From: an uncultured Candidatus Saccharibacteria bacterium
GTDB lineage: Bacteria; Patescibacteriota; Minisyncoccia; Phycocordibacterales; CAYGLL01
Direction: 5' to 3'
Length of the DNA stretch: 51,688 nucleotides
Assembly (NCBI GenBank): GCA_964350935.1
Contig: CAYGLL010000007.1
Span: 1-51,688 of the forward strand
Position 1 is the first letter of the stretch. Every line of letters starts with the position of its first letter. The position numbers were made by a program, and so were the translations under genes. A model generated the notes under the pieces. It did not search any database. It was not told the origin of the DNA and worked only from the letters and a program-made list of their open reading frames with translations. Below, one piece after another: positions 2,820 to 30,368 of this stretch.

Positions 2820-3713
2820 ATGGATTGTCTCGTGTCAACTCGACGAACTAATAAATACGTGGATCAACGAATTCGTCTCGCATTAACGCTTTTTGCAGTT
2901 ATTACTTATGCGCTCCCTGCTTTTGCTCAAGAAGAACGCGTTCACATTAAAAATGTTTCTCCTATAAAAACAGGTGACGCAATCGTAATCGAACTTGCCC
3001 TTTCGCCGCAAAATATTGAAAGTATTTTCTTTAATCGTAAATCTATGAACACATTTACTTACAAGGGAAAAACGATGCTGGTACTTCCCATACCAGGACG
3101 AGAATCTGCAGGACTACGAAAACTTGAGATTACCACCACAAACAAGGAAAAGATTACAGAAAACATAACGGTTAATTCCCGATCTTCGCAGGTCATAATA
3201 CTGCCAGTACCAAAAGCGATGAACGTAACCCCGCAAAAATTAGTCGAGAACCTGGGAACACAAAAAGTATCTATCGCCACAAATTTAAATCGAGGCTCAA
3301 ATGCGATTCTTGTTTCAAAACCATTTGGGTTACCTCTTGCTGACAACCGCTCGGTTAGCAGCCCTTACGGTGAGATTCGAAAAACCGGCAACGAATCCAT
3401 TCGCCACATTGGCGTCGATTTTGGCGGAAAAACAGGTTCAATCGTTTACGCTATTAATGACGGAAAAATTCTCGACGCATATACAGATCCTGTATATGGC
3501 AAGACAATCATTATTGATCACGGAGCTCGTATTTCGTCACTCTATATGCACCTCAACAGCATGTTCGTCGTCAAAGGTGCTACGGTAAAACAGGGAAACA
3601 AAATCGGAACGTTGGGTCAAACAGGGCTTGCAAGCGCTCCTCATCTCCACCTTTCAATCAAAATTGACGGCGAGTCTGTTGATCCACTTTCTTTTGTTCG
3701 TAATTTTAAATAG
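2820..3713 (+). CDS. M23/LytM-family metallopeptidase, secreted
   Basis: Signal peptide ending ALPAFA/QEE. C-terminal M23 motifs HIGVDF and SAPHLHLSIKIDGESVDP. Start moved to in-frame ATG 2820 (track start is TTG 2802). Confidence 0.85.
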   Translation: MDCLVSTRRTNKYVDQRIRLALTLFAVITYALPAFAQEERVHIKNVSPIKTGDAIVIELALSPQNIESIFFNRKSMNTFTYKGKTMLVLPIPGRESAGLRKLEITTTNKEKITENITVNSRSSQVIILPVPKAMNVTPQKLVENLGTQKVSIATNLNRGSNAILVSKPFGLPLADNRSVSSPYGEIRKTGNESIRHIGVDFGGKTGSIVYAINDGKILDAYTDPVYGKTIIIDHGARISSLYMHLNSMFVVKGATVKQGNKIGTLGQTGLASAPHLHLSIKIDGESVDPLSFVRNFK

Positions 3714-3721
3714 TCAGTAAC

Positions 3722-3751
3722 AAAAAAACCCGCCTCTCGATGAGAGGCGGG
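3722..3751. terminator. bidirectional intrinsic terminator (strong for the minus strand)
   Basis: A7 + CCCGCCTCT cgatg AGAGGCGGG + TTGTGT, between convergent genes. Confidence 0.75.
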
Positions 3752-3786
3752 TTGTGTACAAACGTACAAAACTTTACCGCTGAAAC

Positions 3787-4686
3787 CTACTTTTTCTTCA
3801 ACTCTTCCGGACGAAGTGTCCGGAAGGAGTCGGGATGCGTGAGGTTGAACTTGGCGATGTGCAAACGATGCTTCGGGTTGAAGCCCACTTCTTTTGCTTC
3901 TTCAACAATGCCTGTGAACTGCGGTGACTCCTTTACCTTCGTTGACATAGCACGACTATCAAGGTGGCGGTCGTAAACAATCCGCGAACCACGCTGACAG
4001 GTTGGATCACGATCATCATCGTAATACTGAGAGAGTACCGCAATACGGGTTCCGAGGAAAACCGCTTCCACCAGATCGTGAGTGACAAAGAGGATGGTCA
4101 GTTTGTGCTTTTCCCAGAGCTCAAGCAGCAAAACCTGCATCTGCTCGCGCGTACCAGGGTCCAGTGCCCCGAACGGTTCGTCCATAAGAAGAACCTCGGG
4201 TTTGAGGATCAAGGCTTGTGCAATGGCGACACGCTGCTGCATACCGCCAGAAAGTTGTCCCGGATACTTGTTGATCGCATCCGTAAGCCTCATCTGCTCG
4301 AGCATTTGATACACTTCAGCCTTCAGTTCCTTTCGGCCAAAGATGCGCCTCCCCAAAGGGTGACGCAGATCAAGACCCAGCATAACGTTGCCAAACACCG
4401 TGAGGTGCGGAAAGAGTGAGTACTTTTGGTACACAATCCCCCGTCGCGTATCTGCAAACCCAGCGGGCCGCCGATCAATTTCAAGAATTCCACGGTTCGG
4501 AATTTCCTGTCCGAGCGCGAGACGTAGGAATGTCGATTTGCCGCACCCCGAGGGTCCGACAAATGAAACAAAATCTCCGCGACGGACACAGAAATCCACG
4601 TTATCGAGAACTAACTTGTCCCCGTATCCGTGGTATATATCCTGCGCAAAAATGTGAGTTCTGTTGCTTTGGCGTAATTCGTGCAT
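3787..4686 (-). CDS. ABC transporter ATP-binding protein (NitT/TauT nitrate/sulfonate/taurine-type)
   Basis: Walker A GPSGCGKST, signature LSGGMQQRVAIAQAL, Walker B LLMDEPFGALD. Start taken at ATG 4686 just after the permease stop (track start 4728 overlaps the permease). Confidence 0.85.
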   Translation of the reverse strand: MHELRQSNRTHIFAQDIYHGYGDKLVLDNVDFCVRRGDFVSFVGPSGCGKSTFLRLALGQEIPNRGILEIDRRPAGFADTRRGIVYQKYSLFPHLTVFGNVMLGLDLRHPLGRRIFGRKELKAEVYQMLEQMRLTDAINKYPGQLSGGMQQRVAIAQALILKPEVLLMDEPFGALDPGTREQMQVLLLELWEKHKLTILFVTHDLVEAVFLGTRIAVLSQYYDDDRDPTCQRGSRIVYDRHLDSRAMSTKVKESPQFTGIVEEAKEVGFNPKHRLHIAKFNLTHPDSFRTLRPEELKKK

Positions 4687-4699
4687 AAGGATTCCTTTT

Positions 4700-5581
4700 T
4701 TACTTCTCAGCAAGCCAGTACCACGCATGACGCCATCGGCTAAAATACTTTAGAGACATATCAACGGTAAAACCGATGAGTGTAATCCAGAGTACGTACG
4801 GAATGATGACGTCCATTGCCATGTATCGTCGAACCAGAAAAATGCGGTATCCCAGACCTTCGGTTGAGGCGAGTCCCTCCGCAGCGATGAGAAACAGCCA
4901 CGAGGCTCCGAGGGAAAGACGAATCGCATCAATCAACCGCGGTTTAACCTGCGGGAGAATGATTCGATACACATAACCAAGTTGAGATGCGCCCATGGTG
5001 AGAGATTTTGTCAGCTGCTCTCGAGGAAGCTCGAGCACCGACTTTCGGATTGAGTGTGTGATGACCGGTGCAACACCAATAACTATTAGTGTTACTTTTG
5101 CCAGCTCACCGAGCCCGAAAACAACAAAGAGAATCGGTAAAAGCGCCAAAGGTGGCACAATCGCAGCGAAGGTGGCAACGGAATACAAACCCGCATCCAT
5201 GCCACGGAAGAGTCCCATATTCATTCCCAGGAAGAGACCGATCAGTGCGGCAATTGAAATTCCAAATGCCATACGTCTCACACTTGCGAAGGTATCGGCC
5301 CATAGGAGCCGTTTCCCTGTTCGAACATCCTCAGTGAATGCCATGCGTTTTATTGCCGCACCCATCTGAGTAAATGTGGGAAGAAGTTTGTCGTTGGGAT
5401 TTTCGCGATGTCGAGCCTGCGAAAGCAGACTGTAGACGATCACGAGCGCTACAAAAGGCAGAAGAGAAAGGAACCGTCCAAACTTTTTTCCCGGAACCGC
5501 ATGGACCCCCCAAAAACTGGGTATCCGATAGTCACGATCTAACCGTTCGACCTCAGAAGTAGGTGTTTCAGTATCTTTCAT
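4700..5581 (-). CDS. ABC transporter permease (SsuC/TauC/NrtB-like)
   Basis: Multi-TM protein directly upstream of the ATPase. Start at ATG 5581, downstream of promoter 5634-5661; the track extension to 5695 runs through promoter and terminator. Confidence 0.8.
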   Translation of the reverse strand: MKDTETPTSEVERLDRDYRIPSFWGVHAVPGKKFGRFLSLLPFVALVIVYSLLSQARHRENPNDKLLPTFTQMGAAIKRMAFTEDVRTGKRLLWADTFASVRRMAFGISIAALIGLFLGMNMGLFRGMDAGLYSVATFAAIVPPLALLPILFVVFGLGELAKVTLIVIGVAPVITHSIRKSVLELPREQLTKSLTMGASQLGYVYRIILPQVKPRLIDAIRLSLGASWLFLIAAEGLASTEGLGYRIFLVRRYMAMDVIIPYVLWITLIGFTVDMSLKYFSRWRHAWYWLAEK

Positions 5582-5633
5582 AGGGTGTTTCAGTAAAGTC
5601 CTGTCAAAGGACACGTTGGTGAATCTAAAAATG

Positions 5634-5661
5634 ATATTACATAAATTGGTATATTTGTCAA
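5634..5661 (-). promoter_or_regulatory. sigma-70-like promoter for permease plus ATPase genes
   Basis: Minus sense TTGACA AATATACCAATTTATG TAATAT (N16). Confidence 0.6.
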
Positions 5662-5672
5662 TACCAAGCTCG

Positions 5673-5707
5673 AAAACAAAAAACGCCCCAGTCATTACGA
5701 CTGGGGC
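5673..5707 (-). terminator. intrinsic terminator after the binding-protein gene
   Basis: GCCCCAGTC/GACTGGGGC stem followed on the minus strand by GTTTTTTGTTTT. Confidence 0.75.
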
Positions 5708-5722
5708 GCGCTCAGGGACAAT

Positions 5723-6808
5723 TTACTTGCCCCGCGAGACTTTTTCCATGTAGGAAGATTTGAACCTGAGTTTGACGTTCGCTTTCGAACCGATCACCGA
5801 GCCGTCCGGGAACTCGATCCCGATGGCATCTTTCGATTTCACGCCGTCACCGAGGAGGCCGTGATCGAAACTAAAGGTCCGAACATGTTCCATGGTCTTT
5901 TTGAGCTTCGGGCTCTTCACGAGCGCCGCAGCTTCAGCCGGATCATAGAACATGCGGGTAGTCTTCAGTTGTGACTTGAACTCTCCGAGCGTTCCGCCGG
6001 CAAACGCGGCCATGAACGCAATCATCTCTTCGGCTTTTGCGTCACCGCCTGACATGATCTTCATCGCCTCATACCACGAGTCGGTCAGGGCCTTTTTGAC
6101 ACCATCGGGCGCGCTCGTCTTCACCACCATGAGATCGATGATCTCTTCAGGGATGTTCGTCGAGCTATACACCTGGAGGGTGTTTGGTTCCTGCTTCACC
6201 TTGAGAAGCATGGGGTTATACGTAACCACGGCAGCCTTGGGTCCTCCACCTGCAAATGCGGCGGTAATGTCGGTATCGGTTGTGTTGAGGAGCGTTACAT
6301 CACGCTCGCGCAACTTCGTTTCCGATTCAAGACCACGAACCAGAAGGTAATGTGAGACGCCGCCAACACCGAGAAAGACCTTGCGACCTTTGATATCAGC
6401 GAGCGTCGTCCCATTCTTCAGTGCGACACCGTCGTTGCCGTTCGAGTAATCCCCAGCAATGAGGACTGTTGAGTCCACACCGCCGGCGCAAGGAATGTTC
6501 AGCGCGTCAATTTGGGTCATGGCGCAGCCGGCAATATCCTTGCCAACGGTGTACTGGTTGATCGACTCAATGTAGTCGTTGACGAGCTCGATCTTGATCT
6601 TCACGTTGTTTTTGGCAGCGTGCCGATCCATGATCCCCTGAGCACGAATGTATTCCCAGATCTCCCAGCCGGTGTAGTGCGACCAGAGCACCCGCCACGT
6701 AGTCGCGGAAGATGCGTCGGCAGCCCGAATCTGCTGAGTCGGAATCGCGAGGAAGGCGATGAGTGCGATGAGGAAGAGTGCTGTCAGTTTCAGTCTGTTC
6801 TGTTTCAT
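5723..6808 (-). CDS. ABC transporter substrate-binding protein (NMT1/SsuA/TauA-like)
   Basis: Signal peptide MKQNRLKLTALFLIALIAFLAIP from ATG 6808; periplasmic binding-protein-like body; own terminator at 5673-5707. Confidence 0.7.
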   Translation of the reverse strand: MKQNRLKLTALFLIALIAFLAIPTQQIRAADASSATTWRVLWSHYTGWEIWEYIRAQGIMDRHAAKNNVKIKIELVNDYIESINQYTVGKDIAGCAMTQIDALNIPCAGGVDSTVLIAGDYSNGNDGVALKNGTTLADIKGRKVFLGVGGVSHYLLVRGLESETKLRERDVTLLNTTDTDITAAFAGGGPKAAVVTYNPMLLKVKQEPNTLQVYSSTNIPEEIIDLMVVKTSAPDGVKKALTDSWYEAMKIMSGGDAKAEEMIAFMAAFAGGTLGEFKSQLKTTRMFYDPAEAAALVKSPKLKKTMEHVRTFSFDHGLLGDGVKSKDAIGIEFPDGSVIGSKANVKLRFKSSYMEKVSRGK

Positions 6809-6853
6809 TTCGTTTGTTTCTTTCTGTTCTGTGTTTTTGGTGATTGTTGTTTC

Positions 6854-6886
6854 GGGGCGGGTGTGACCAAAGGTCACACCCGCCCC
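6854..6886 (-). other. GC-rich perfect 15-bp hairpin between telA and the binding-protein gene
   Basis: GGGGCGGGTGTGACC aaa GGTCACACCCGCCCC; no U-tract follows on the minus strand. Confidence 0.8.
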
Positions 6887-6896
6887 CTCTGCCTTT

Positions 6897-8228
6897 TCAG
6901 GCCTTTGCTTCAGCAACGTCGAGATAATCCAATTTCAGAACCATCGGACGAGCACGCTCGCCCTTCTCGATTCGTTGAATGACTCTTTCAGTGCTTTCGG
7001 TAAGGTCGTGTACCTCACGGATACTCTGAGCCATTACTGGCAGAGCTTCCGTACGGAATTTTGAAAGGTCATTCAATGCACCTTCCAACTTGCCGAAGAC
7101 ATACTTCAAGGTCTCCATGTTAATGCGACGACCGACAGCGAGCTTGTGAATCTCAACACCCTGACCGGCGAGTGTATCGGCGGTATACCGCATGAGACTA
7201 TCGGTAGTGGCATCGAGCGCTGCGAGCTTGTCGAGGACAATCCTCTGACGAGTAAGCACCGTAGCGAGAACCACTGCAATAGTGAGTGCCGACCGAGTGA
7301 TGAGCTGTGCCCGCTCGATCCCGCGAATGACCTGCTTGTGGTTCTGACCCGCAATGTAGTAGGCCATGATACCCTGTTGATTGACTGCAAGCTGATCCTG
7401 CATATCCTGAATTCGCTGACGGCAGGGAAAGAGAAGCTCCTCCAGAATGAACTGGCGCTCTTCAGCTCCCTCAGCCATTCCGTTCGCCTCTGACTCAAGC
7501 AGTTCATCAACTGCCTGCGCAACCGCGATTGCTCGTGCGAGCGATCTCGTGGTTTCACGCATACTGGCTCGGTCTGTCGCCAAGGTCTCAATATCTCGAA
7601 GCATTTCCTTCTTGTCGTTTTCAAGCGAGTTGAAGATAGAATCGATAATCGAACCCTGACTTTGGTACTTGGTGAAGAACTTGTTGAGTGTTGTGCGAGC
7701 CTTACCGGGAAGAAACGGAACCCACGTAAAGAAGCGGCCAACTGAGCCGGGTTCCAGAATGCTGTACCCTGCGGGATTAATCTCATCGATCCTAACCTTA
7801 AGATTGACAATCGATGTACCGACGGCCTCACCAATGGGCGACTGCATCATCCGTGCCGCTGTCTGATCCAAGAGCTTGCTCTTGTGAGCTGACCTCTTTT
7901 GAAGGTCAAGGCCGATACCCTCAACTGCTGCTGAGCGTGCGGCGCGATCTTGTTCGGTCGCTGAACCGAGGTTGTCGAGAAGGTTCTTGACGATACCTTG
8001 GGCGGTTTTCTTAACTCGCGGATCTACCGCAGCCTGTTTTACCAGGTCTTTGGAATCAACGGCGCCAATTTCCCTCTTCAGAGACTCATCACCAGCTTTC
8101 AGTGCCTCAGTAACCGTTTCCGGTGAAGCGAAAGCTGTGCGTTTAGTAACTTCATCAGTGAGTCCGATCTGAGTAAGGACTGCTTTGTCCGGCTCAGCCT
8201 GTCTTACCATTGTTGCTTGTTCTTGCAT
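6897..8228 (-). CDS. telA: TelA/KlaA/YaaN-family toxic anion resistance-like protein
   Basis: 443 aa, all-helical. Core LNKFFTKYQSQGSIIDSIFNSLENDKKEMLRD matches my recollection of the TelA family signature. Sits next to an XpaC-like gene, as yaaN-xpaC does in Bacillus. Confidence 0.65.
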   Translation of the reverse strand: MQEQATMVRQAEPDKAVLTQIGLTDEVTKRTAFASPETVTEALKAGDESLKREIGAVDSKDLVKQAAVDPRVKKTAQGIVKNLLDNLGSATEQDRAARSAAVEGIGLDLQKRSAHKSKLLDQTAARMMQSPIGEAVGTSIVNLKVRIDEINPAGYSILEPGSVGRFFTWVPFLPGKARTTLNKFFTKYQSQGSIIDSIFNSLENDKKEMLRDIETLATDRASMRETTRSLARAIAVAQAVDELLESEANGMAEGAEERQFILEELLFPCRQRIQDMQDQLAVNQQGIMAYYIAGQNHKQVIRGIERAQLITRSALTIAVVLATVLTRQRIVLDKLAALDATTDSLMRYTADTLAGQGVEIHKLAVGRRINMETLKYVFGKLEGALNDLSKFRTEALPVMAQSIREVHDLTESTERVIQRIEKGERARPMVLKLDYLDVAEAKA

Positions 8229-8262
8229 CGTGTTATTTCCTTTCTGTTTTGGAAGTTTCGTT

Positions 8263-9126
8263 TTATTTTTCCTTCAGCATATCTGCGATTCCATCCGAAA
8301 CCGCGCTAAAGGTTCTTTTTCGGTTGGTGAGTTCAAGGAGCATTTCCATTGCCATCTGCATTTCTGACGATCCGTCGTCATCAATATGACACACTGCCAT
8401 AGCAGCCTTATCAAGGGCGGAGAGAGCTTCCTCGTTTTCAGCGATAAGCAAACTGACCTCATCCCTTGTCTGCGTAAACACTTTGAGACTTTCACGCTTT
8501 GCATTGAGTTCCCTGTCCTGAGCGACTGTCCGCTTTGGAAAATTTTCAAGCTCTGTGACTTCGCCCGCTAAGGTTTCAGTCTCTGTGCTTTCAATTCCCA
8601 GTAGAAGTGTGACGATTTGCTCAAGATTTTTTATGCCATTCTTGTAGAGCTCTTCAGCTGCTCCAAGAAAGCGACTGTGAGTGAGTTCACCTTTTCTCAG
8701 CTTTCGCTCGATTACTTCCTGAATATTTCCAAACTTTTCATCGAGGAGTGCGAGCTGGCGAGCGCCTTTTGAGCACCTCACCCGCTTGGTCAACTCTTTC
8801 TGCAACGTGTCGAGATATGCCTTTCGGATTTCATCGAACTCGGCATGAAGTCTCTGGTGATACCGGAGCCGGTAGTCATCTCCTTTTCCCAAAAGCTGGT
8901 AGAGGAAGTTAAACCCGCCGACGCTAATCACCACTCCGGCAACAATAGTTCCAATGACTGGTAGTGCGAGCGCCAGCGATGCCAAGAGCCCTACAACTCC
9001 AACACCCATCGGAATCAACGTACCGGGGTGCTGAATTATTTCACCCAAAACGACTCTGCGAGTAGCACCTTCACCGTAACTTTCAGGTGTAGGCGCCTGT
9101 GCTTGTCTTTCGGTTTTTTTGTTCAT
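8263..9126 (-). CDS. XpaC-like membrane protein (two TM helices plus helical cytoplasmic domain)
   Basis: Architecture (two adjacent TM helices, then a long helical region) and adjacency to telA. Start at ATG 9126 behind AGGAAT; track start is TTG 9150. Confidence 0.4.
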   Translation of the reverse strand: MNKKTERQAQAPTPESYGEGATRRVVLGEIIQHPGTLIPMGVGVVGLLASLALALPVIGTIVAGVVISVGGFNFLYQLLGKGDDYRLRYHQRLHAEFDEIRKAYLDTLQKELTKRVRCSKGARQLALLDEKFGNIQEVIERKLRKGELTHSRFLGAAEELYKNGIKNLEQIVTLLLGIESTETETLAGEVTELENFPKRTVAQDRELNAKRESLKVFTQTRDEVSLLIAENEEALSALDKAAMAVCHIDDDGSSEMQMAMEMLLELTNRKRTFSAVSDGIADMLKEK

Positions 9127-9265
9127 TATTATTCCTACATGGATTTTCAAAAAACAATGTGCAGCTAGTGCACCTTTGACTTATTCTGCACATTATTGCA
9201 ATTTTGTCAAGTATACGTTCTGCCTTTCTGTGGCCTACTTGAGGCCTCATTTACCACTCCTTTAG

Positions 9266-9300
9266 CAAAGAAAAAGGCCTCTCGCATTCACGAGAGGCCT
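9266..9300 (-). terminator. intrinsic terminator after 9309-10886
   Basis: AGGCCTCTCG/CGAGAGGCCT stem followed by TTTTTCTTTG on the minus strand. Confidence 0.75.
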
Positions 9301-9308
9301 TAAAAAAC

Positions 9309-10886
9309 TCAATACACTTCAGTGAGAAGAGTGATCTCCACCCGCCTGAGCCGAAAACCATACGCTCGGTCCGGCTCGTCCGGAAGACGTGGGAGCGGCC
9401 GTGAACCGCCATGCCCGACTGCGTACATTCGGTTGGGATCAACCGAATACGTCGCCTCGAAATACTTAGCGACAGCATCAGCCCGTTCCTTAGAAAGGAT
9501 TTTGCTCGTCTCCTCGTCACCACCAATGTCCGTGTGGCCGCTAACTCCGATTCGAAATGTCGGATAGTGCTTGATCTTTGCAGCGATTCTGTCGAGCTCC
9601 TCTTTTCCTTCAAGTGTAAGCTCTCCTGTTCCGCTCTTGAAGTTGATCGGTTCGATTTTCATCGTTCCAATCGGCTTCTGCATACGCCAAGCAGTTTCAG
9701 AGAGCACGGAGAACCGTGCTTCAATTCCCTGCCCCGTACCTAAAGCGGCAGGAGCAAGATTGGTGAAGCCGAATCTCACTCCAGACTTGTAGAGGTTTTT
9801 GATGAAGTCACTGTTGATGATGTGATACGGATTCTTTTTGGGAATCGGATGCGTAGAAAAGTCTTTCGCATCTATGAGAATCTCAACTGTCGATTCAATC
9901 GTATCAACAAGCCCCTGTTCGCCGGTCTGCCCTTGCGAAGAGATCCCAAACCAACTCTCAGCGTTTTCGGTAAGTGTGACCCACCGAACGCCTTGAATTG
10001 ATTTTTCCGCAACAACAGTCTTGACGTGCATTTCACTCGCAAACTCATTCCGCAAGTCGTCGCTGTTCGAGTTGTAGTATTTCAACACCCGAAAATATGC
10101 CTTCAGGAGGATATCGAGAGTCTCGGGATGTTCCTGAATGATCTTCCGATTGGCGATAGCGACATCAACAACGACACGTTTCGTTTGCTCGGTACCCAGT
10201 AGTTTTTCAACTCCCGGAATTTCGAGCGCTTTTGAAACGTCAGGCTCCCACAACACGGCGATCGATACCTTGCGGTTCTTAAGGAGATCAAGTGCCCCTT
10301 CAGAACCTTCGGTTTCAAGTCGCATTTTTGACGGAAGCGTACGAAGCACCGGAATATCGAAATGAGCGCCGGCAACCTTCAGCAAGTGATGACTCGCGGA
10401 ATTGGGGGTGAATGCAATTTTCTGAATCTTGTTGGTTTTTAAAGCCTCAAGATTCGGAAAAGCGTCTTTGTAGGCGCAAATAGCATCGCCCTTTGACTCA
10501 TCAATGACTGCGATGATCGCACCCGGATACTGAGCTTTAACTGCATTCAGAATATAGGTGTCGACCGTTGCTACGATGAGATCAAACTCGCCTTTCTCAA
10601 GGCGATCCATGCGACTTTTGTAGTCAGCCTTGTCGTCTTCGCAGACGAGAAGGTAACCCTCCCGAAGCATCTCTTTCTTGAGCCGTTGTGAACGCAACGG
10701 GAAATAGCCTGCCCACGAATCAACGCCGATGGTAATGCGACCCTTCGTCGCACGAGCATCGCTCGTTTCAATATCTGCCTTATTCTTGTTACGAGCCTTG
10801 AGGATTGGGGCCCCAAACTTGTAAACGAAGACGCCGATAATACCGACCACCACCGCAATGATGGTTATCAATGTTAGCTTTTTCAT
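9309..10886 (-). CDS. membrane-anchored binding-protein-like (NMT1/TauA-type) :: OmpA_C-like fusion protein
   Basis: N-terminal TM anchor; RITIGVDSWAGYFP... binding-protein body; C-terminal OmpA-like GHTDIGGDEETSKILSKERADAVAKYF...RLRRVEI. Confidence 0.7.
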   Translation of the reverse strand: MKKLTLITIIAVVVGIIGVFVYKFGAPILKARNKNKADIETSDARATKGRITIGVDSWAGYFPLRSQRLKKEMLREGYLLVCEDDKADYKSRMDRLEKGEFDLIVATVDTYILNAVKAQYPGAIIAVIDESKGDAICAYKDAFPNLEALKTNKIQKIAFTPNSASHHLLKVAGAHFDIPVLRTLPSKMRLETEGSEGALDLLKNRKVSIAVLWEPDVSKALEIPGVEKLLGTEQTKRVVVDVAIANRKIIQEHPETLDILLKAYFRVLKYYNSNSDDLRNEFASEMHVKTVVAEKSIQGVRWVTLTENAESWFGISSQGQTGEQGLVDTIESTVEILIDAKDFSTHPIPKKNPYHIINSDFIKNLYKSGVRFGFTNLAPAALGTGQGIEARFSVLSETAWRMQKPIGTMKIEPINFKSGTGELTLEGKEELDRIAAKIKHYPTFRIGVSGHTDIGGDEETSKILSKERADAVAKYFEATYSVDPNRMYAVGHGGSRPLPRLPDEPDRAYGFRLRRVEITLLTEVY

Positions 10887-10911
10887 AGTTGGTAAAGAAC
10901 ACTAACAGCTT

Positions 10912-10939
10912 AGATTACATAAAAAAAGCTTTTTGTCAA
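10912..10939 (-). promoter_or_regulatory. sigma-70-like promoter for 9309-10886
   Basis: Minus sense TTGACA AAAAGCTTTTTTTATG TAATCT (N16). Confidence 0.6.
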
Positions 10940-10962
10940 TATACCGTTCGGACAATTAAACT

Positions 10963-10995
10963 AAAGAAAAAGCGCCCCAAAAGCTTGGGGCGCTT
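10963..10995 (-). terminator. intrinsic terminator after the small ORF of the ATPase operon
   Basis: GCGCCCCAA/TTGGGGCGC stem followed by TTTTTCTTT on the minus strand. Confidence 0.75.
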
Positions 10996-11013
10996 ACTAA
11001 ACTCAGGCAGACA

Positions 11014-11193
11014 CTAACTTTCCTCCTTGTGCTTTTTGTCTTTACCCGCTCCCTTGAGCGCTTCTCCGAGCCGCTTCATCAACGGTTCAATGTCAGGCGC
11101 CTTTTCAGAGCGACGCTTAATTGGTGGCGGAGTAGTTTCCTCAGGACTAAGAGGTGGGGTTGTCTCGCGTTCGGTTCGTTGCTTACGTTTCAT
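11014..11193 (-). CDS. small Lys/Glu/Pro-rich, probably disordered protein (59 aa)
   Basis: ATG 11193 preceded by GAGGTG, which overlaps the ATPase stop codon (GCAGCATAAGAGGTGTTTATG). Followed by terminator 10963-10995. Confidence 0.45.
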   Translation of the reverse strand: MKRKQRTERETTPPLSPEETTPPPIKRRSEKAPDIEPLMKRLGEALKGAGKDKKHKEES

Positions 11194-11202
11194 AAACACC
11201 TC

Positions 11203-12912
11203 TTATGCTGCCGGTTGAACCGTGCTCGCCTTCAGGCATTTCGTAAGAGTCTTTTTGGACTCCTCAACAAGAATTTGGAAGTCGTCGTCGTAGTTTCCGT
11301 CACGTGACTCAACAAATGCACTGTCTGCCGCTGAAACGATGTCATCGAAGGTAATTCCCTCGGGAGTTCCGAGATTTTCAACATTGCGCCTGATTGCTAT
11401 CTCAGTCGCCCGCTCGACAATGTTTGCGATCATTGCTCCACTCAGAACATCGCCAAACGTAAACGGACGATCTTCCTTTTGACCGGCGTTATCAGTGAGC
11501 TCAAGGTCGAAAATCACACGCTTCGGACTGAAGACTTCAGTTGCAGCCTGTGCCGCAAGCCCTGCGAGTTCCAAACCTTCCCGCAGAAGCGTCTTCTTGA
11601 GATGAATCGCGAAGATCTGCCCGGCACCCTTTTGATTCCTCGGACGATCAACTTTCACTTTTCGATCGATACGTCCAGGACGGATAATTGCAGGATCCAA
11701 AACATCGGGACGATTCGTTGCGAGAATGATGAGCGCCGAGGATTCCTCGAGCCCATCCATCTCAGCAAGAAACGTCGGGACAATGGTCTTTTCAACGTCC
11801 GAACTGATACCGCTACCGCGCTTTGAAAGCAGAGCTTCCGCCTCATCGATGAAGATGGTCAGCGGGTAGCCATACTTTTTCTTGAACGCACGAGCAAGAT
11901 CGAAGATCTGTCGGATGACACCTTCAGGTTCGCCGACCCACTTGGTCAACATTTCGGGTCCCTTGATGCAGAGAAATCCGCCCGAAACATCTTTACTCGA
12001 CAAGAGTCGAGCACGTGCTGCTGCTGCACCTTTGGCGAGAAGTGTTTTACCGCAACCGGGAGGTCCGTAAATGAGAATTCCTTTGAGTGGCTTCCGCTTG
12101 TATTTTTTGTACAAGTCAGCGTGCACAATGGGAAACTCGATCGCCTGAATCATGACAGAGACGGCTGCATCCTGCCCACCGATATCCGCCCAGGTAAATT
12201 CGAGTTTTTCACTGAACTCAAACCGAGACTCGTCCTTGCCAATGTTGAGAAGAATGATACTTCCCGACTTATCGAGTACGACACGATCGCCGGCTTCAGG
12301 TGACTGCGTACGTCCCAATAAAACGACGCGGGCATTTCCCTGAAACTCAACCTCAACACGTCCGTTATCGAGAATCCGTTTGATCGTAGCGACCCCGCCC
12401 CAGAGTGAGTCCTCGATGACGTCCACAATCTGAAATGTCTTCATCGAGAGTCGCACTGTGTCTCCGGCCTTAAGACTCTTATCCACAGGAAGTTTCACCT
12501 CAAGCTCTCTGCCTTCATAGGCAACAACAACCGAGATACCCCGATCGAAGAGTTCAAGATCGCACTCACCAAGCACAAGCAGAGGGTCATCGTTTCGGGT
12601 TTCACCGATTCGATACTCGCCTTCAGCTCCGCTGTCAAAATGGACCGTAACCCACCCAGGACGTAGAGAATTCTTAATTGTACCGAGACCCATTTTACTG
12701 CTCTCAAGCTCTGCGCCCGGCCGAACAAAAACTCGAACACTCGGTGCAAAATCCTTTGGAGTCGGATTAAGGAGAACACCCTTGCCAATTCGCAGAACAG
12801 TACCAAGAGCAAACGGCTCGCCGGTAAGCTGGAGTATGCGGGCATGCTGTTTGAGAACCGTATCTCGCGACCTCTCAATTACGTCGCGTAACTGCGCATC
12901 ATGTTCAGTCAT
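11203..12912 (-). CDS. ARC/Mpa/PAN-type AAA+ ATPase (coiled coil + OB-like N-domain + single AAA module)
   Basis: Walker A GPPGCGKT and Walker B IFIDEAE. RGSGISSDVEKTIVPTFLAEMDG and NRPDVLDPAIIRPGRIDRKVKVDRP closely resemble the proteasomal-ATPase family as I recall it. The N-terminus has a short helix followed by ~220 aa of beta-rich sequence. Confidence 0.8.
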   Translation of the reverse strand: MTEHDAQLRDVIERSRDTVLKQHARILQLTGEPFALGTVLRIGKGVLLNPTPKDFAPSVRVFVRPGAELESSKMGLGTIKNSLRPGWVTVHFDSGAEGEYRIGETRNDDPLLVLGECDLELFDRGISVVVAYEGRELEVKLPVDKSLKAGDTVRLSMKTFQIVDVIEDSLWGGVATIKRILDNGRVEVEFQGNARVVLLGRTQSPEAGDRVVLDKSGSIILLNIGKDESRFEFSEKLEFTWADIGGQDAAVSVMIQAIEFPIVHADLYKKYKRKPLKGILIYGPPGCGKTLLAKGAAAARARLLSSKDVSGGFLCIKGPEMLTKWVGEPEGVIRQIFDLARAFKKKYGYPLTIFIDEAEALLSKRGSGISSDVEKTIVPTFLAEMDGLEESSALIILATNRPDVLDPAIIRPGRIDRKVKVDRPRNQKGAGQIFAIHLKKTLLREGLELAGLAAQAATEVFSPKRVIFDLELTDNAGQKEDRPFTFGDVLSGAMIANIVERATEIAIRRNVENLGTPEGITFDDIVSAADSAFVESRDGNYDDDFQILVEESKKTLTKCLKASTVQPAA

Positions 12913-12993
12913 AATATATCTGCCTTTGTTTTGTTAAAGACCCAGGTTTTTTTCGTCGATATGCACCAGGCACATCTTCTGAAAACTAAAGGC

Positions 12994-13021
12994 AAACTAG
13001 CATAAAATTATAAAAAGTCAA
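12994..13021 (-). promoter_or_regulatory. sigma-70-like promoter for the AAA+ ATPase operon
   Basis: Minus sense TTGACT TTTTATAATTTTATGC TAGTTT (N16). Confidence 0.5.
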
Positions 13022-13042
13022 TAGTCCTTACGCCTTCTCACT

Positions 13043-13077
13043 AAAAAGAAAAACCCTCCCCGCTTTTGCGAGGAGGG
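13043..13077 (-). terminator. intrinsic terminator after the vWA gene
   Basis: CCCTCC..GGAGGG stem followed by TTTTTCTTTTT on the minus strand. Confidence 0.7.
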
Positions 13078-13096
13078 TGAAGTGACACGGAACAAC

Positions 13097-13831
13097 TTAC
13101 TTCTGCGGCTTAAAGGAGTCTGACTCGGCAAGAACCGATTCGAGGCCCTTCTTGAGATCTCCGGGAGAGTTTGCATCCCGGTAGTTGATCTTCCCTGGCT
13201 GGTTCAACGAGTGGCCGCCACCGATGCAGAAACCCATCGTGTGAATCACCACGGGTGTCCCCGTGAGGATTTCTTTGACGATCTCACTCGGGTCCTGACC
13301 CATGTTGGCTTCGCCGTCGGTGACAACCACCAGGTGGTACTCACCATAGCCCAGTTGTCGGGCAGCCTGTCGTTTCACCTTCTCGTACGCGAGTGTGATT
13401 GAGTCCTTGAGCGGAGTGTTAGCTCGGGTGTCGGAGACATCGACCGCGCGGTTGAACTCTTTCCGGTTGTTTACGTTAAGAGGTACCCGCTCAGTAATGC
13501 CGTCACCATCGAAGACCAGAAGCCCGAGGTTGTCTTCAGGGTTAAGTCTTGAAGCGAACTCTTTGACGGCCCGCTTCGCAACTGCCGACTTGGACTCGCT
13601 GCCTGAGCAACCGCTGCTCGCCATACTCCCGGAACCGTCGAGAACGATGTAGAAATTTCGCCTCGTCTGTTCCGGATCAAGATCGGTGCTGTCGGTGCCA
13701 TACCACGCCTGCACTCCAAGAGTGCTCGTGCCGGCACTACTGCTCCCCGATCCCGTCGCATCTGCCGAATCTTTGCAGCCTGTAGAGAGGAGTAACCCAA
13801 GAATGAGTGTTGGAAACAGATATCTCATCAT
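13097..13831 (-). CDS. von Willebrand factor A (vWA) domain lipoprotein
   Basis: Lipobox LLLSTGC; MIDAS start FYIVLDGSGSM. Tandem ATGs at 13831/13828 lie right after AGGAGG and the upstream stop codon; the track start 13987 overlaps the upstream gene. Confidence 0.75.
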   Translation of the reverse strand: MMRYLFPTLILGLLLSTGCKDSADATGSGSSSAGTSTLGVQAWYGTDSTDLDPEQTRRNFYIVLDGSGSMASSGCSGSESKSAVAKRAVKEFASRLNPEDNLGLLVFDGDGITERVPLNVNNRKEFNRAVDVSDTRANTPLKDSITLAYEKVKRQAARQLGYGEYHLVVVTDGEANMGQDPSEIVKEILTGTPVVIHTMGFCIGGGHSLNQPGKINYRDANSPGDLKKGLESVLAESDSFKPQK

Positions 13832-13838
13832 GGCCTCC

Positions 13839-15533
13839 TTACTTGGCGGGAGTGAACACCGAGGCTTCGGCCTCGACGGGAACCAAACGGAATACAGCGC
13901 GCATGTTTGAGAGGAATTTCTCCTCGCTGTCAGGCCGCACCGGAATACCGTTCTGCATTCCTGTCTTCGGATTTGAGAACCCGACACCGCTCACGCCGAA
14001 CTGAGACGAATCAAGCGTATGCTTTTTTACGTTTGAAGCGTAATCAAGAACCGCCTGCCGAACGGCTGCGGCTCGTGAGAGAGAAAGGTTCCTTCCGCTC
14101 TGCGCAATCCGTTTGAGCACCGCATCAGGTGCATTGGTCTTTGCCGCATCAACATAGCCTGTTGGGTCGCTATGACCTTCGATACTGATGATCGCTCCGG
14201 CGTACGTAGTCGCAAGCTCAATCACCCGTTCGAAGTCCTCCTTGTAGGCTTCCGCGTCGAACGTTTGTTTGTTCGGCGGGAACTTCACCTCAAAGGTGAC
14301 CACGGCCGCTGCACCGAGCGTGCCGGCAGCGGTTTTCTTCGCGACAAACTGTGCAACCGCTTCCGGCTGGAAACGTGGAGCTTCCGCCATTGAGGTGTTG
14401 AAGAGACCTTGTTTCAGATCATCGTAATTGAGAACGCCATGCTCAAGGAGAACCGTTGACTTCAGGATGTTGAGTTTCATAAAGGCCTGCTGGATCTCAC
14501 TGTTGAGAGCCAGGAAGCCGCGCGGAAACGTCGGATCATTGAAGAACTTCACATTGCCGGGATAGCCGACAAACGTGCAGTCTGCATAGAGTCCTTTCAC
14601 GTCTTCAGTCATGTCCTTGGTGTCGAGAAGCATCAGTGCACTCGCAGGAAGCAGACGATCGAGCTCGGGCTTGCGGGCGGGGTCTTTCATGATTCGTGCG
14701 ACCTGTTCCTCTGCGAGGAGCAGGGCGTGCACAAACTTTTCAACCTCACCGCGATGAGACTCGAAGTACTCCTGACTACACACATAGACGTCGGGAATTG
14801 CCTGATTTGCAGTCAACGTGGAGAAGAGCGAACGAGCGCCCCGCACCGCCTTGTCACCGCTTACCAGTTCCTTGGCATCAGGCGAAATCACAAACGCCGC
14901 GTGGACATTTGGATCTTGCCTGAATGCTGCTCCCGGCGTGTTGTCGGTACCAGTAATGTCTTTGACGTATTTGATCGTAACATCCGTCGGAGAAAGATTT
15001 CCCCGCTTAAGAATCGTCGTGAGAAGATCGAGATGCGGGCCGTAAGCCTGAATCACGATTGTTTTCCCCCGAAGGTCCTCGATGCTGTTGATCCCGCTTT
15101 TAACGACGAGCACATCGCCACCCGATGACCATGTCATCTGGTAGACCGTGACCGGCCGCGTCCGCGGATCCTGATTGAGAAGTTCGGCTGCTTGATTCAA
15201 CATGCCGAGCGTAACCCGCAAGTAAGGACTCTGGCCGCCCATGTATCCCACCAGCTGATTGGTGAACACGTCCTGACGAACGAGCCTGAAGTTCAAGCCC
15301 TGCTTCGCAAAGATCGAGTTGGGCGCCGTGTTAGTGGCACTCCCGTTCCCGAAGATGGTGGCGATATCACCGCCCCACGTGATGATCGGGAGTTGATCCG
15401 CCGGACCGTTCCTGGTATAGGAGCGGACGGGGGTCTTCACGACATCACGAAGCGGCTTCTGTTCGATGTATTGAGCAGCATTAAGCGCGAGCGCCTGAAT
15501 GCAGAGGATAACTAACCACAGGTGTCTTTTCAC
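13839..15533 (-). CDS. secreted binding-protein-like :: OmpA_C-like fusion protein (paralogous architecture to 9309-10886)
   Basis: GTG start behind AGAAAGG; signal peptide; binding-protein-like body; C-terminal IEGHSDPTG...LSLSRAAAVRQAVLDY...MRAVFRLV is OmpA-like. Confidence 0.7.
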   Translation of the reverse strand: MKRHLWLVILCIQALALNAAQYIEQKPLRDVVKTPVRSYTRNGPADQLPIITWGGDIATIFGNGSATNTAPNSIFAKQGLNFRLVRQDVFTNQLVGYMGGQSPYLRVTLGMLNQAAELLNQDPRTRPVTVYQMTWSSGGDVLVVKSGINSIEDLRGKTIVIQAYGPHLDLLTTILKRGNLSPTDVTIKYVKDITGTDNTPGAAFRQDPNVHAAFVISPDAKELVSGDKAVRGARSLFSTLTANQAIPDVYVCSQEYFESHRGEVEKFVHALLLAEEQVARIMKDPARKPELDRLLPASALMLLDTKDMTEDVKGLYADCTFVGYPGNVKFFNDPTFPRGFLALNSEIQQAFMKLNILKSTVLLEHGVLNYDDLKQGLFNTSMAEAPRFQPEAVAQFVAKKTAAGTLGAAAVVTFEVKFPPNKQTFDAEAYKEDFERVIELATTYAGAIISIEGHSDPTGYVDAAKTNAPDAVLKRIAQSGRNLSLSRAAAVRQAVLDYASNVKKHTLDSSQFGVSGVGFSNPKTGMQNGIPVRPDSEEKFLSNMRAVFRLVPVEAEASVFTPAK

Positions 15534-15607
15534 GTGCTGTAACCTTTCTGTTGTTTGTTGTTTACCGTGTATTCAATTGAAAAGAGCATAGAAAATGCCC
15601 TGGTGTC

Positions 15608-15635
15608 ATATTACATAAAAAGCTCTCTATGTCAA
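15608..15635 (-). promoter_or_regulatory. sigma-70-like promoter for the 13839-15533 / vWA operon
   Basis: Minus sense TTGACA TAGAGAGCTTTTTATG TAATAT (N16); overlaps the stop of the upstream gene. Confidence 0.6.
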
Positions 15636-16177
15636 GTATTTCGTGGGTCTGGCGGCCGTGCGTCAAGCATGAGATTTGCTGAAGAAAGTATTAGTTCCTT
15701 TACGCGCTCGGGGTGGTGAGCATCAAGAATCGTAAAAGCCTTATGCTCCCCTGCCGTTTGAACAATAATGTTACCGAACTTCATCATCGTCCCCAAAACA
15801 CCCTTAATTTGAACGGTAATGTCCTGAATCCTATCAAGCCGCAAATTTGATATTTCCCGGTTAAAAAGGCCCTTCTGCTCAACATCAATCATCTGTTTAT
15901 TGGTAATGACCCACACATCTAAATAGTAGTTCGTCCAAATTAAAAACGAAACAACCCAGAGGCACAAAAGCCAGAGTGAATAGAAAAAAGAGAATAAAAT
16001 AAATGGATCGTTAAGATTGAGATTAAATCTGAGGAGGACAAGAGTGACTGCCTCATAAAAAAAGATCGGAGCACCCGCAAGCACAATGATAAAAAAACTC
16101 TCTGAAACAAGCACCCACCAGTGACGTCGTACGGTGGCGACAATTTTCTCGTCCGGATCTAATTTTAAAAAAATCAT
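15632..16177 (-). CDS. bPH_2 (YdbS/YdbT-like) membrane protein
   Basis: N-terminal TM helices followed by a PH-like domain. ATG 16177 avoids overlap with the upstream small ORF. Confidence 0.55.
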   Translation of the reverse strand: MIFLKLDPDEKIVATVRRHWWVLVSESFFIIVLAGAPIFFYEAVTLVLLRFNLNLNDPFILFSFFYSLWLLCLWVVSFLIWTNYYLDVWVITNKQMIDVEQKGLFNREISNLRLDRIQDITVQIKGVLGTMMKFGNIIVQTAGEHKAFTILDAHHPERVKELILSSANLMLDARPPDPRNT

Positions 16178-16184
16178 AAAATAG

Positions 16185-16418
16185 TTAGAGTGCAATGAGC
16201 GAGACAAGTGCTCCTAATACCAGAAACGCGGCAACGCCAAAATAAAGTATCTTTGCAATGTGCTCAACACGTGGATTCATACTGTACTTGCGCCAGTGAT
16301 ACAAATAAATAGAACTCATCACCGCAAAACCGATAATAACAACCGCAAACAAAAGAGGCAGATAAATTGAATTTTGAACTTCACCCAAAAGCTGATTAGC
16401 CTTATCAACTGTACTCAT
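16185..16418 (-). CDS. small two-TM membrane protein, 77 aa
   Basis: ATG ORF with two clear hydrophobic helices, tightly packed upstream of the bPH_2 gene. Confidence 0.45.
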   Translation of the reverse strand: MSTVDKANQLLGEVQNSIYLPLLFAVVIIGFAVMSSIYLYHWRKYSMNPRVEHIAKILYFGVAAFLVLGALVSLIAL

Positions 16419-16463
16419 GTGACTAAGTATATACTCACCCTTTCACCCAAACAACGAATATAC

Positions 16464-16491
16464 AAAACCGCCGTTCCTTTCGGAACGGCGG
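16464..16491 (-). terminator. intrinsic terminator after the RRM gene
   Basis: 10-bp stem CCGCCGTTCC/GGAACGGCGG followed by TTTTG on the minus strand. Confidence 0.7.
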
Positions 16492-16513
16492 CAATGTATC
16501 TAACGTGCGAAGC

Positions 16514-24034: not shown

Positions 24035-24062
24035 TTGACAAATCTTTAAAAATATGTAATAT
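24035..24062 (+). promoter_or_regulatory. sigma-70-like promoter for ORF 24185
   Basis: TTGACA AATCTTTAAAAATATG TAATAT (N16). Confidence 0.6.
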
Positions 24063-29773: not shown

Positions 29774-29811
29774 GGTTCGCGAGAGGCATCACACCTCGAC
29801 ACGTTACTACC
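29217..29811. repeat. tandem duplication unit 1 (595 bp, dnaG 5' end plus 38-nt leader)
   Basis: Identical by eye to 29812-30406. ORF-track proteins at 29376 and 29971 are identical with a 595-nt offset. TACA microhomology at all three junction points. Confidence 0.9.
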
Positions 29812-30368
29812 TACACTGTTTTGCCGTCATCGGATTTTTTTATGAGCCCCGCCTTCTCCATCTCCCCCTGCGTATATCCACGCGAAGAAAGGTGCGTTCC
29901 GAGTGCGCGCCACTCTTTTGGCGCAAACCCCAAACGCCATTTTTCAAATGAAGCCTGATTTAATCCGCGTTTGAGAAGATACTCGCGGGCGGCAGTTTCC
30001 GTTGTTAAGTTTGACTCGAACCATCGCGACGCCTCTTCCATGATTTCGTACAACTTGTCCTTCTCGCTCTTTAAAGTCGGGTTTTCTTTTACAATCTCAA
30101 CACCCGCACGCGCAGCCAGAGTTTTGAGTGCGCCCAGAAAATCAGTTCCCTCAAACTGCTCAACGAAAGTGAACATGTCCCCTTTCATGCCGCATCCAAA
30201 ACAATAGAACGTGCCCCGGTTGGGTGACACGAAAAAGGATGGCGTCTTTTCGTGATGAAAAGGACACCGTGCCTTGTAACTCGAACCGGCTTTCTCAAGC
30301 TTGATTGAACCTCCGATCACGTCAACGATCGAAAGCCGGTCTTTAATTTGTTCTACAGTTGAAGACAT
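29811..30368 (-). pseudogene. truncated duplicate of the dnaG 5' end (185 aa: zinc finger plus start of the polymerase domain)
   Basis: Amino-acid sequence identical to DnaG residues 1-185. It ends at a TAG created at the duplication junction (29811-29813). Confidence 0.65.

Follow-up and report, generated by a model that had tools for sequence, protein, structure and literature searches.

From our analysis of a 51,688-nucleotide stretch of DNA from an uncultured Candidatus Saccharibacteria bacterium (contig CAYGLL010000007.1 of assembly GCA_964350935.1; hereafter, the window), a block of ten minus-strand genes was found to contain eight genes, here called L, V, S, X, T, B, P and C, which recur, in conserved order, at 152 distinct loci spread over at least eight phyla, and we regard it as almost certain that they constitute a conserved functional gene cluster built around the toxic anion resistance protein TelA. 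The best explanation overall, towards which our confidence is evenly balanced, is that this block represents a single copy of a cell-envelope cluster which is widespread and moves horizontally, and to which an AAA+ module is an optional addition. According to open reading frame (ORF) calls and domain scans with Pfam and NCBIfam, ten ORFs fill positions 3787-15533, and in the order of transcription (L, V, A, 59-aa ORF, S, X, T, B, P, C) they are as follows:

13839-15533, minus strand: L, an exported protein of 564 aa, with a binding domain of the TauA/SsuA/NMT1 type and, at its C-terminus, an OmpA-like domain for peptidoglycan binding (Pfam/NCBIfam)
13097-13831, minus strand: V, a vWA lipoprotein with a complete metal-ion-dependent adhesion site (MIDAS) (PF00092, 47 bits, 3.5e-12)
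11203-12912, minus strand: A, an ARC/Mpa/PAN-type AAA+ unfoldase with a coiled coil, beta/OB domains and one AAA module (Pfam/NCBIfam)
11014-11193, minus strand: a 59-aa ORF directly after A, called as a gene on the ENA copy of the contig
9309-10886, minus strand: S, a protein of 525 aa in which an N-terminal membrane anchor precedes a TauA-fold binding domain and an OmpA-like domain (PF00691, 58.2 bits)
8263-9126, minus strand: X, a 287-aa protein with a cytoplasmic N-terminus, a hairpin of two transmembrane (TM) segments at about residues 34-79 and a helical cytoplasmic domain of about 200 aa (from hydrophobic segments)
6897-8228, minus strand: T, TelA, an all-helical cytoplasmic protein of the toxic anion resistance family (PF05816, 172.3 bits, 1.9e-50)
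5723-6808, minus strand: B, a free periplasmic binding protein of the guanidine/urea-carboxylase-associated NitT/TauT family (TIGR03427, 404.6 bits, cut-off 333.9)
4700-5581, minus strand: P, a TauC/SsuC/NrtB-like permease of an ATP-binding cassette (ABC) importer (PF00528, 3.2e-19; TauC, 1.4e-27)
3787-4686, minus strand: C, an ABC ATPase (PF00005, 5.2e-31)

The first-pass annotation of the window, made from the letters and an ORF list, had counted eleven genes in the block, although its own list also comes to ten. It had proposed that these genes belong together and that the proposal would fall if they never co-occurred outside this genome; the survey of gene neighbourhoods decisively shows that they do, with eight of the ten genes in conserved order. 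A scan of one genome per species found relatives of S in 208 species, from which the best 80 loci were kept, and a metagenome scan, in which a single-protein query returned no close relatives and an alignment query succeeded, added 80 loci, together giving the 152 distinct loci onto which the window proteins were mapped by tblastn. Gene presence could be judged in the 68 loci with enough flanking sequence. All 68 have L and V, at least 60 have X (adjoining S), 58 have T, and 54-55 have the importer genes B, P and C; two apparent absences of X turned out to be divergent X genes, and all eight genes are present in 46 loci. The same neighbours are found in a Paceibacterota contig, a gammaproteobacterial contig and a Syntrophobacteraceae chromosome, in the last of which the two halves are swapped, and the rearranged loci are circular permutations that keep the neighbours together (T-B-P-C-L-V-S-X, P-C-L-V-S-X-T-B and B-P-C-L-V-S-X-T). 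L-V-S(-X) is the invariant core; a minority of loci lack TelA, and a minority lack the importer. A chance juxtaposition, in which unrelated operons for a transporter, TelA and wall proteins form a mosaic on one island, could draw on the five separate transcription units of the block and on components which are individually common; it is refuted by the recurrence of the same eight genes in the same or a circularly permuted order across so many loci and phyla, and its probability is negligible.

The carriers include Patescibacteria, Verrucomicrobiota, Gamma- and Betaproteobacteria, Elusimicrobiota and many Desulfobacterota (e.g., cable bacteria, Desulfosarcina variabilis, Desulfogranum japonicum DSM 18378 and Desulfomonile), and single genomes of Crocinitomicaceae (Bacteroidota) and of magnetotactic Nitrospirota, as well as Thalassolituus maritimus. 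We found no paper in full-text searches and no PADLOC model that joins these parts, as the first-pass annotation had supposed; a 2012 analysis of Ter/TelA neighbourhoods lay outside the search, so a prior prediction is possible. The eight-gene cluster thus seems undescribed, and what is new as partners of TelA is the two binding-protein::OmpA fusions, the exported MIDAS lipoprotein and the X family, the use of an AAA+ protein being facultative.

Two further genes accompany some of the loci. One, found just upstream of the cluster in 13 Desulfobulbia, Desulfobacterales and Elusimicrobia loci (e.g., L063:6185-7210), encodes a radical-SAM protein with a distant resemblance to the archaeosine enzyme RaSEA (TIGR01210, 115 bits, under cut-off). 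In one subclade of Paceibacterota, a 103-aa ORF (55-65% identical) follows S (L173:4960-5271, L003:11712-12023 and L093:2052-2327); it is present with or without an AAA+ gene and is absent from the window.

S is the hallmark gene of the cluster, with full-length homologs that are 44-54% identical across phyla. Its OmpA-like domain scores more than twice the PF00691 cut-off (58.2 bits vs 27.2) and carries the motif GHTD...LSKERA, and its AlphaFold2 (AF2) model, with a predicted local distance difference test score (pLDDT) of 85, consists of an N-terminal helix, a TauA/SsuA-fold domain and the OmpA-like domain, matching TauA (6ssy) with a TM-score of 0.80 (E 7e-14). Clusters of Asp, Trp, Tyr and Glu are among its conserved residues. 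L scores 28 bits with PF09084, 1.3e-12 with TIGR01728 and 18.8 bits with PF00691; the last is under the cut-off and the OmpA-like domain carries an insertion, while the peptidoglycan contact motif (GHSD...LSLSRA) and many residues of the binding domain are kept in 69 homologs, and a signal-like hydrophobic segment spans residues 5-23. Judging from this domain composition, L and S have TauA-fold ligand-binding domains and are predicted to be tethered to peptidoglycan via their OmpA-like domains, S also being predicted to be anchored in the membrane by its N-terminal helix. The binding-domain proteins L, S and B have no significant pairwise BLAST similarity, and a shared ancestry is therefore unsupported.

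The third wall-side protein, V, has the pattern DGSGS...T...D, in which all five MIDAS residues are conserved at 95% or more in 75 homologs, so that a functional MIDAS is predicted; two Cys residues are also conserved, and a lipobox-like LSTGC follows MMRYLFPTLILGLL. Its best NCBIfam matches are weak BatA-type ones. A TerY/TerF-like cytoplasmic vWA protein was considered for V and rejected, because the lipoprotein signal and conserved Cys pairs point to export and V has no Ter, kinase or phosphatase partners. The block had been linked in the first-pass annotation to Ter-type membrane stress systems by way of TelA and the vWA protein. The TelA part of that link stands, whereas no TerB, TerC or TerD domain of terZABCDEF-type systems was found in the ten proteins or in the Pfam-annotated related loci, and V is an exported lipoprotein rather than TerY/TerF-like.

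Since the early 1990s, resistance to tellurite, bacteriocins, antibiotics and phages has been associated with TelA, for which we know of neither a mechanism nor a solved structure. The family assignment of T is firm (172.3 bits vs a cut-off of 30, over PF05816 profile positions 13-331 of 332), and the source records label its homologs as toxic anion resistance, KlaA or YaaN. The AF2 model of T has three helices of about 70 residues (pLDDT 67), and a hydrophobic helix at residues 307-332 is conserved. An ESCRT-III/PspA fold was rejected for T, as the best Foldseek hit had an E-value of 0.019 and a TM-score below 0.3, and only coiled-coil, BAR and chemoreceptor matches, all non-significant, were returned. 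The gene before it, X, belongs to a family with 600 representatives at E <= 1e-3 (50% clustering), for which there is neither a Pfam or NCBIfam match nor a Pfam model or solved relative. The label "XpaC-like" given to X earlier does not survive profile searches, since PF10112 matches 0 of 52 cluster homologs (E <= 0.1) and 0 of 150 family representatives (E <= 0.01); X resembles XpaC only in architecture (a TM hairpin with a helical domain) and in its position before telA. A marginal match of X to LemA (E 0.056) disappeared with a larger profile. In the gammaproteobacterial copy (L005:4002-7150), genes for PspA, YqiJ and flotillin lie immediately upstream of L on the same strand, a context of membrane stress.

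For the importer, the earlier assignment to the NitT/TauT type holds and can be refined to a family that it had missed, TIGR03427. This family was originally recognised by its association with urea carboxylase (now guanidine carboxylase) and is now known for guanidine uptake; full-text searches on the TIGR03427 entry itself returned nothing relevant. B passes the threshold of the family and is accompanied by a permease and an ATPase; its motifs WSHYTGW and GDxSNGNDG are kept in 52 homologs, and its ortholog in locus L005 reaches 494 bits. The start of P was placed at M39 because the longer ORF would cross a terminator and a promoter, and the best matches of P are TauC, SaoP, NrtB and SsuC, each under its equivalog cut-off. 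GimA, a NitT/TauT binding protein, binds guanidine with a dissociation constant of 97 nM via Trp/Phe and Asp residues (PMC12704784), and B, S and L conserve clusters of Trp/Tyr and Asp/Glu. The B-P-C operon has neither the riboswitch nor the degrading genes that would indicate a functional guanidine importer of the GimABC kind: no Guanidine-I, -II or -III riboswitch was found in the window, where 3500-16500 was also scanned at E <= 1, nor within the cluster at 18 other loci, and no guanidine-degrading enzyme is linked to the cluster. In Thalassolituus maritimus, a Guanidine-I riboswitch (RF00442, 89 bits; L043:20614-20729) lies about 6 kb downstream of the cluster and directly precedes a second TIGR03427-type gene, which is 47% identical to the B of the window and as similar to it as the ortholog in the Thalassolituus cluster itself.

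These observations bear on an uptake-centred reading, in which the cluster scavenges guanidine, or a nitrogen compound akin to it, with high affinity; L and S act as antennae on the wall that gather the solute for B-P-C, and the role of TelA and X is confined to shielding the membrane from the chaotrope taken up. The family of B, its riboswitch-controlled paralog and the GimABC precedent speak for it, as do at least six loci that keep L-V-S(-X) and B-P-C without TelA. We nevertheless consider it improbable, given that about 13 of the 68 loci keep L-V-S-X-T without B-P-C nearby, so that import is not an invariant part, that no catabolic gene or riboswitch is linked, and that guanidine nitrogen would be of little use to Patescibacteria lacking a hydrolase or carboxylase, neither of which is present in the window.

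Protein A has the architecture of ARC/PAN-type unfoldases, with a coiled coil, OB domain, single AAA module and aromatic pore loop (KWVG), along with the Walker A motif GPPGCGKT and the Walker B motif DEAE. It scores 105 bits (6e-30) with PF00004 and 26 bits with PF16450, the OB domain of proteasomal ATPases, and among PDB structures Mpa (5kwa) gives the longest single match that includes the N-domain, over residues 143-538. Membership in a proteasome or pupylation system was rejected: against TIGR03689, A reaches 315.4 bits over residues 4-538 (cut-off 504.75), its C-terminus (...TVQPAA) is without the penultimate-Tyr docking motif, and the window has no 20S, PafA or Dop gene (no prcAB, pafA/dop or pup partner among the scanned window ORFs of at least 139 aa). 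The 59-aa ORF has no Pfam match to Pup and no GGQ/GGE end as in Pup, and it has no homolog in any other cluster locus; nor was a conserved small ORF found after the AAA+ genes embedded in clusters. It aligns weakly with small ORFs behind stand-alone ARC-like genes and is possibly a lineage-specific, degenerate Pup-like partner.

ARC-like AAA+ genes lie inside the cluster in 24 of the 152 loci, only in Patescibacteria and Verrucomicrobiota, where they occupy the V-S gap on the opposite strand, the S-X gap on the same strand or a place upstream of L. The closest relative of the window cluster (locus L173) has its copy between S and X on the same strand, and the co-oriented V-A-S arrangement of the window, with its 59-aa ORF, is unique among the loci seen. 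The earlier treatment of the unfoldase and the 59-aa ORF as core parts thus has to be given up, as the AAA+ gene is absent from 128 of the 152 loci and variable in place and orientation, and the 59-aa ORF is not conserved. A second, unrelated classical AAA+ gene is found divergently upstream of L in 16 further loci (Proteobacteria, Desulfobacterota and Elusimicrobiota), all without an ARC-like gene; its product of about 499 aa has AAA and lid_3 domains and an N-terminal domain of about 250 aa of no recognised family. Its positions are:

L088:5697-7196, minus strand: second AAA+ gene, divergent from L (example)
also at L027, L034, L039, L050, L053, L055, L056, L062 and L065
also at L076, L122, L127, L145, L146, L153, L162 and L171

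Four stand-alone ARC-like loci were also seen (L002:10001-12443, L090:8001-10601, L091:8001-10151 and L092:7799-10422), in each of which the AAA+ gene is followed by a small ORF of 56-77 aa with a basic N-terminus, a Pup-like 'EID..LL' helix and a C-terminal Cys-x-Cys, one of them matching Pfam Pup at E 0.058. A DUF1360 membrane protein comes next in L002, L090 and L092, with a CPYC motif in the latter two, near whose AAA+ genes resolvase or integrase genes are also found. A possible interpretation of the AAA+/small ORF/DUF1360 set is a Pup-like tagging or adaptor module in bacteria without proteasomes; literature searches on Pup-like proteins in Patescibacteria returned nothing relevant.

Conceivably, then, A and the 59-aa ORF are an independent passenger inserted between V and S, such as a general Patescibacteria unfoldase with its Pup-like partner. 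This would fit the promoter-like site and terminator that their unit has of its own, the absence of the AAA+ gene from most loci, the unique arrangement in the window and the stand-alone nature of the nearest full-length relatives of A, which keep the order AAA+, small ORF and DUF1360 in three of the four loci and have a resolvase or integrase nearby in two; the alignment of A to the stand-alone gene of L002 is full-length and includes an extra N-terminal segment of about 80 aa. Yet ARC-like genes are embedded in the cluster in 24 loci from two phyla, at three sites and on either strand, a pattern that would scarcely arise unless linkage were selected for; other phyla link a second AAA+ family to the cluster, and A shares the foreign composition of the block. 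In our estimation, these points make the passenger unlikely. A functional tie of the AAA+ proteins to the cluster is indicated because two AAA+ families have become linked to it repeatedly and independently of position, and on balance we favour the ARC-type AAA+ as a functionally linked accessory. The neighbour-joining tree of the AAA+ proteins is too star-like to place the origin of the window copy relative to the other cluster-embedded copies.

The block had been described as richer in G+C and compositionally distinct after spot counts, and this is borne out by profiles that are far from flat. Calculations across the entire window put G+C at 0.511 for the block and 0.452 elsewhere; G+C at third codon positions (GC3) is 0.48-0.68 in block genes vs 0.35-0.46 in flanking genes, with rpoB/rpoC at 0.49-0.51; and the tetranucleotide correlation to the remaining contig is 0.53-0.60 inside the block and above 0.9 elsewhere. 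By G+C, GC3 and tetranucleotides, the block is therefore atypical in the manner of a genomic island. Marks of mobility are lacking: the window has no tRNA, its annotated ORFs include no recombinase, and the borders carry no convincing direct repeat, just as the first-pass annotation had stated. Across the loci, a G+C excess of the cluster over its flanks (0.05-0.09) is found only in low-G+C Patescibacteria hosts and is about zero in the others, which range from 38 to 69% G+C. In its other hosts the cluster thus follows the G+C of the genome, which indicates that its composition is not constrained intrinsically; the copies in Patescibacteria seem to have been acquired. In a neighbour-joining tree of concatenated L, V and S without support values, the window groups with two Paceibacterota copies and with Verrucomicrobiota, and another pair of Patescibacteria falls elsewhere; the closest homologs of the block proteins are named Paceibacterota, Parcubacteria, Kerfeldbacteria and Sungbacteria. 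We consider a horizontal origin of the cluster in this low-G+C Patescibacteria genome likely.

Five G+C-rich minus-strand hairpins of 11-12 bp, with T-runs, delimit five transcription units, which agree exactly with the five units proposed earlier. The terminator at the lower border had been called bidirectional; the hairpin is there, with a T-run on the minus-strand side only, so that this description is half right. The promoter proposed at the upper border is also supported, being one of three exact copies of the same motif in the block. The signals and RNA elements are as follows:

15608-15635, minus strand: promoter-like TTGACA-N12-TATGTAAT upstream of L, at the upper border of the block (exact motif repeat)
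13053-13078, minus strand: terminator hairpin closing the L-V unit (11-bp stem with 8 G-C pairs, T-run)
10970-10995, minus strand: terminator hairpin closing the unit of A and the 59-aa ORF (G+C-rich stem, T-run)
9274-9301, minus strand: terminator hairpin closing the S unit (G+C-rich stem, T-run)
6854-6886, minus strand: perfect 15-bp G+C-rich stem-loop without U-tract, between the TelA stop and the B start
5683-5709, minus strand: terminator hairpin closing the X-T-B unit (G+C-rich stem, T-run)
3727-3753, minus strand: terminator hairpin closing the P-C unit, at the lower border of the block (G+C-rich stem, T-run)

The other two exact copies of TTGACA-N12-TATGTAAT in the block lie before S (10912-10939) and before P (5634-5661), and a fourth is found at 24035-24060, before a native 228-aa gene without assigned function; the foreign block is using host-type promoters. 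The stem-loop at 6854-6886 is very stable (free energy -36.2 kcal/mol, z -6.5) and may set the ratio of the binding protein to X and TelA via transcript processing or stability.

As to what the cluster does, we propose a mechanism which, as worded here, is tentative and rather doubtful. L, S and V would form a wall-anchored receptor assembly for a small cationic ligand of the guanidinium type or a like group borne by the wall; ligand occupancy or distortion of the envelope would be relayed, by the helices that S and X have in the membrane, to a scaffold of TelA at its inner face; and this scaffold would stabilise or remodel the membrane while B-P-C imports the free solute. The ARC-type unfoldase, recruited in Patescibacteria and Verrucomicrobiota, would most likely disassemble or reset the X/TelA assembly, in the window together with its lineage-specific 59-aa partner, the cluster having presumably reached a low-G+C, Patescibacteria-like genome by horizontal transfer. 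A more speculative version, which we hold to be quite improbable, would see in L-V-S-X-T(-B-P-C) an ancient and hitherto unrecognised envelope-spanning machine, in which wall-tethered binding-protein domains sense a cationic signal of the guanidinium type, or wall damage, and control a TelA polymer at the inner membrane face; this polymer would be recycled by the ARC-type AAA+ in Patescibacteria and Verrucomicrobiota and by the second AAA+ family elsewhere.

Several observations weigh against these proposals. No experiments on any cluster member were found in the literature, so that function is read from domain content and gene order; the "scaffold" role of TelA is itself a published prediction (PMC7824862), and the TelA model, of moderate confidence, matched no solved fold in the PDB significantly. 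A ligand shared by the three binding proteins is a guess because they have no BLAST similarity to one another. With no riboswitch in the window or the 18 other clusters and no guanidine-degrading enzyme linked, import of guanidine would have no obvious purpose, and the true ligand may differ. The separate promoter-like site and terminator of the A unit, and the stand-alone relatives of A with recombinases nearby in L090 and L092, leave room for a passenger. As for the transfer, the promoter motif which the block shares with a native gene implies that it was not very recent, and the trees are neighbour-joining ones without support values.

Ter systems, which include TelA and vWA proteins, have been implicated in resistance to phages and colicins (PMC7824862), and from this a different function could be deduced: a Ter-kind system of anti-phage defence or conflict, in which TelA and the vWA protein form a barrier under and over the membrane, the AAA+ protein is the NTPase and the patchiness reflects the dynamics of defence islands. 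Besides that precedent, the patchy distribution and the signs of transfer would suit it, as would a weak similarity of A to IetA/IteA and TRIP13 models. We think this very unlikely, since the core proteins, without a significant PADLOC match and without a nuclease, toxin or other effector, are 45-55% identical across phyla and fixed in order, unlike fast-diversifying defence genes, and the flanks hold housekeeping genes rather than defence islands. Membership in a PADLOC 2.0 defence system was rejected for L, V, S, X, T, B and P, none of which has a significant match, the similarities of the AAA and ABC ATPases being generic; marginal matches were those of S to ZorB/MotB-type OmpA (E 0.0073) and of X to LeoBC (E 0.00094).

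Among the genes outside the block are rpoB and rpoC in compact form (1058 and 1227 aa), one for a PMT-type glycosyltransferase and dnaG-sigma70; taken with the names of the closest homologs of the block proteins, they suggest a Patescibacteria (CPR) genome. A 185-aa ORF (29811-30368) immediately upstream of the complete dnaG gene (28028-29773) duplicates the DnaG zinc ribbon and the first part of the catalytic core. A 960-aa protein at 45620-48502 has as its sole Pfam match a prokaryotic SLOG domain (LSDAT_prok) near its C-terminus, a domain typical of nucleotide-sensing conflict systems.

In essence, the cluster gives TelA a set of partners that is fixed across phyla, namely two wall-anchored binding proteins, the MIDAS lipoprotein, a membrane adaptor, a transporter whose class of ligand can be predicted and sometimes an unfoldase, so that the function of TelA becomes testable by binding, interaction and knockout experiments, several of the carriers being culturable. 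The fusion of a binding protein to an OmpA-like domain is a new class of domain architecture with hundreds of members; the small proteins beside ARC-type ATPases offer a lead on Pup-like proteins in bacteria without proteasomes; and the block exemplifies the probable entry of a complex envelope system into the streamlined genomes of Patescibacteria. If the envelope-spanning machine should prove true, TelA would gain a defined set of partners and a mechanism with a logic parallel to that of ESCRT-III/Vps4.

Among the known systems, those of TelA and Ter (terZABCDEF, the kilA operon klaA-telA-telB and Bacillus xpaC-yaaN) share with the cluster a bona fide PF05816 TelA, a vWA protein and the placing of a gene, X, before TelA, as xpaC precedes yaaN/telA in Firmicutes (PMC6811118). 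Unlike them, the cluster is without TerA, TerB, TerC and TerD, its X is not detectably XpaC, its vWA protein is an exported lipoprotein, and it adds two peptidoglycan-anchored binding proteins and an ABC importer, which were found with TelA in no searchable paper. The pairing of a helical membrane-face protein with a classical AAA+ protein in some lineages may recall ESCRT-III/PspA and Vps4, although TelA has no significant fold match, and a vWA protein within the same cluster as an AAA+ protein recalls the MoxR-vWA (Bat) modules, in which respect the cluster differs by an AAA+ protein that is not of the MoxR type and by a vWA protein lying across the membrane from the ATPase.

The unfoldase compares with ARC/Mpa/PAN and Pup in its coiled coil, OB domain(s), single AAA module and intact pore loop, in the near full-length match to TIGR03689 and to Mpa structures and in the small basic/helical ORF directly downstream; it departs from them in its score under the equivalog cut-off and its missing docking motif, in a window without 20S, PafA and Dop, and in a 59-aa ORF that is not conserved and has no GGQ/GGE end. 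With GimABC and other TIGR03427 importers, the cluster has in common a B protein above the family cut-off, a permease and an ATPase of the same class, and a binding site with aromatic and acidic residues of the same kind; the differences are that no riboswitch, guanidinase or carboxylase is linked in the window cluster, that the ligand class is predicted from sequence and that the transporter is embedded in a cluster of TelA and wall proteins. Finally, S resembles the anchors of the MotB, Pal and YiaD type in its MotB-like N-terminal membrane helix and in its C-terminal OmpA-like domain with the canonical D...R motif, whereas its cluster is without a channel partner of the MotA/TolQ kind, and S itself is set apart from these anchors by a complete TauA-fold domain inserted between the membrane anchor and the OmpA domain.

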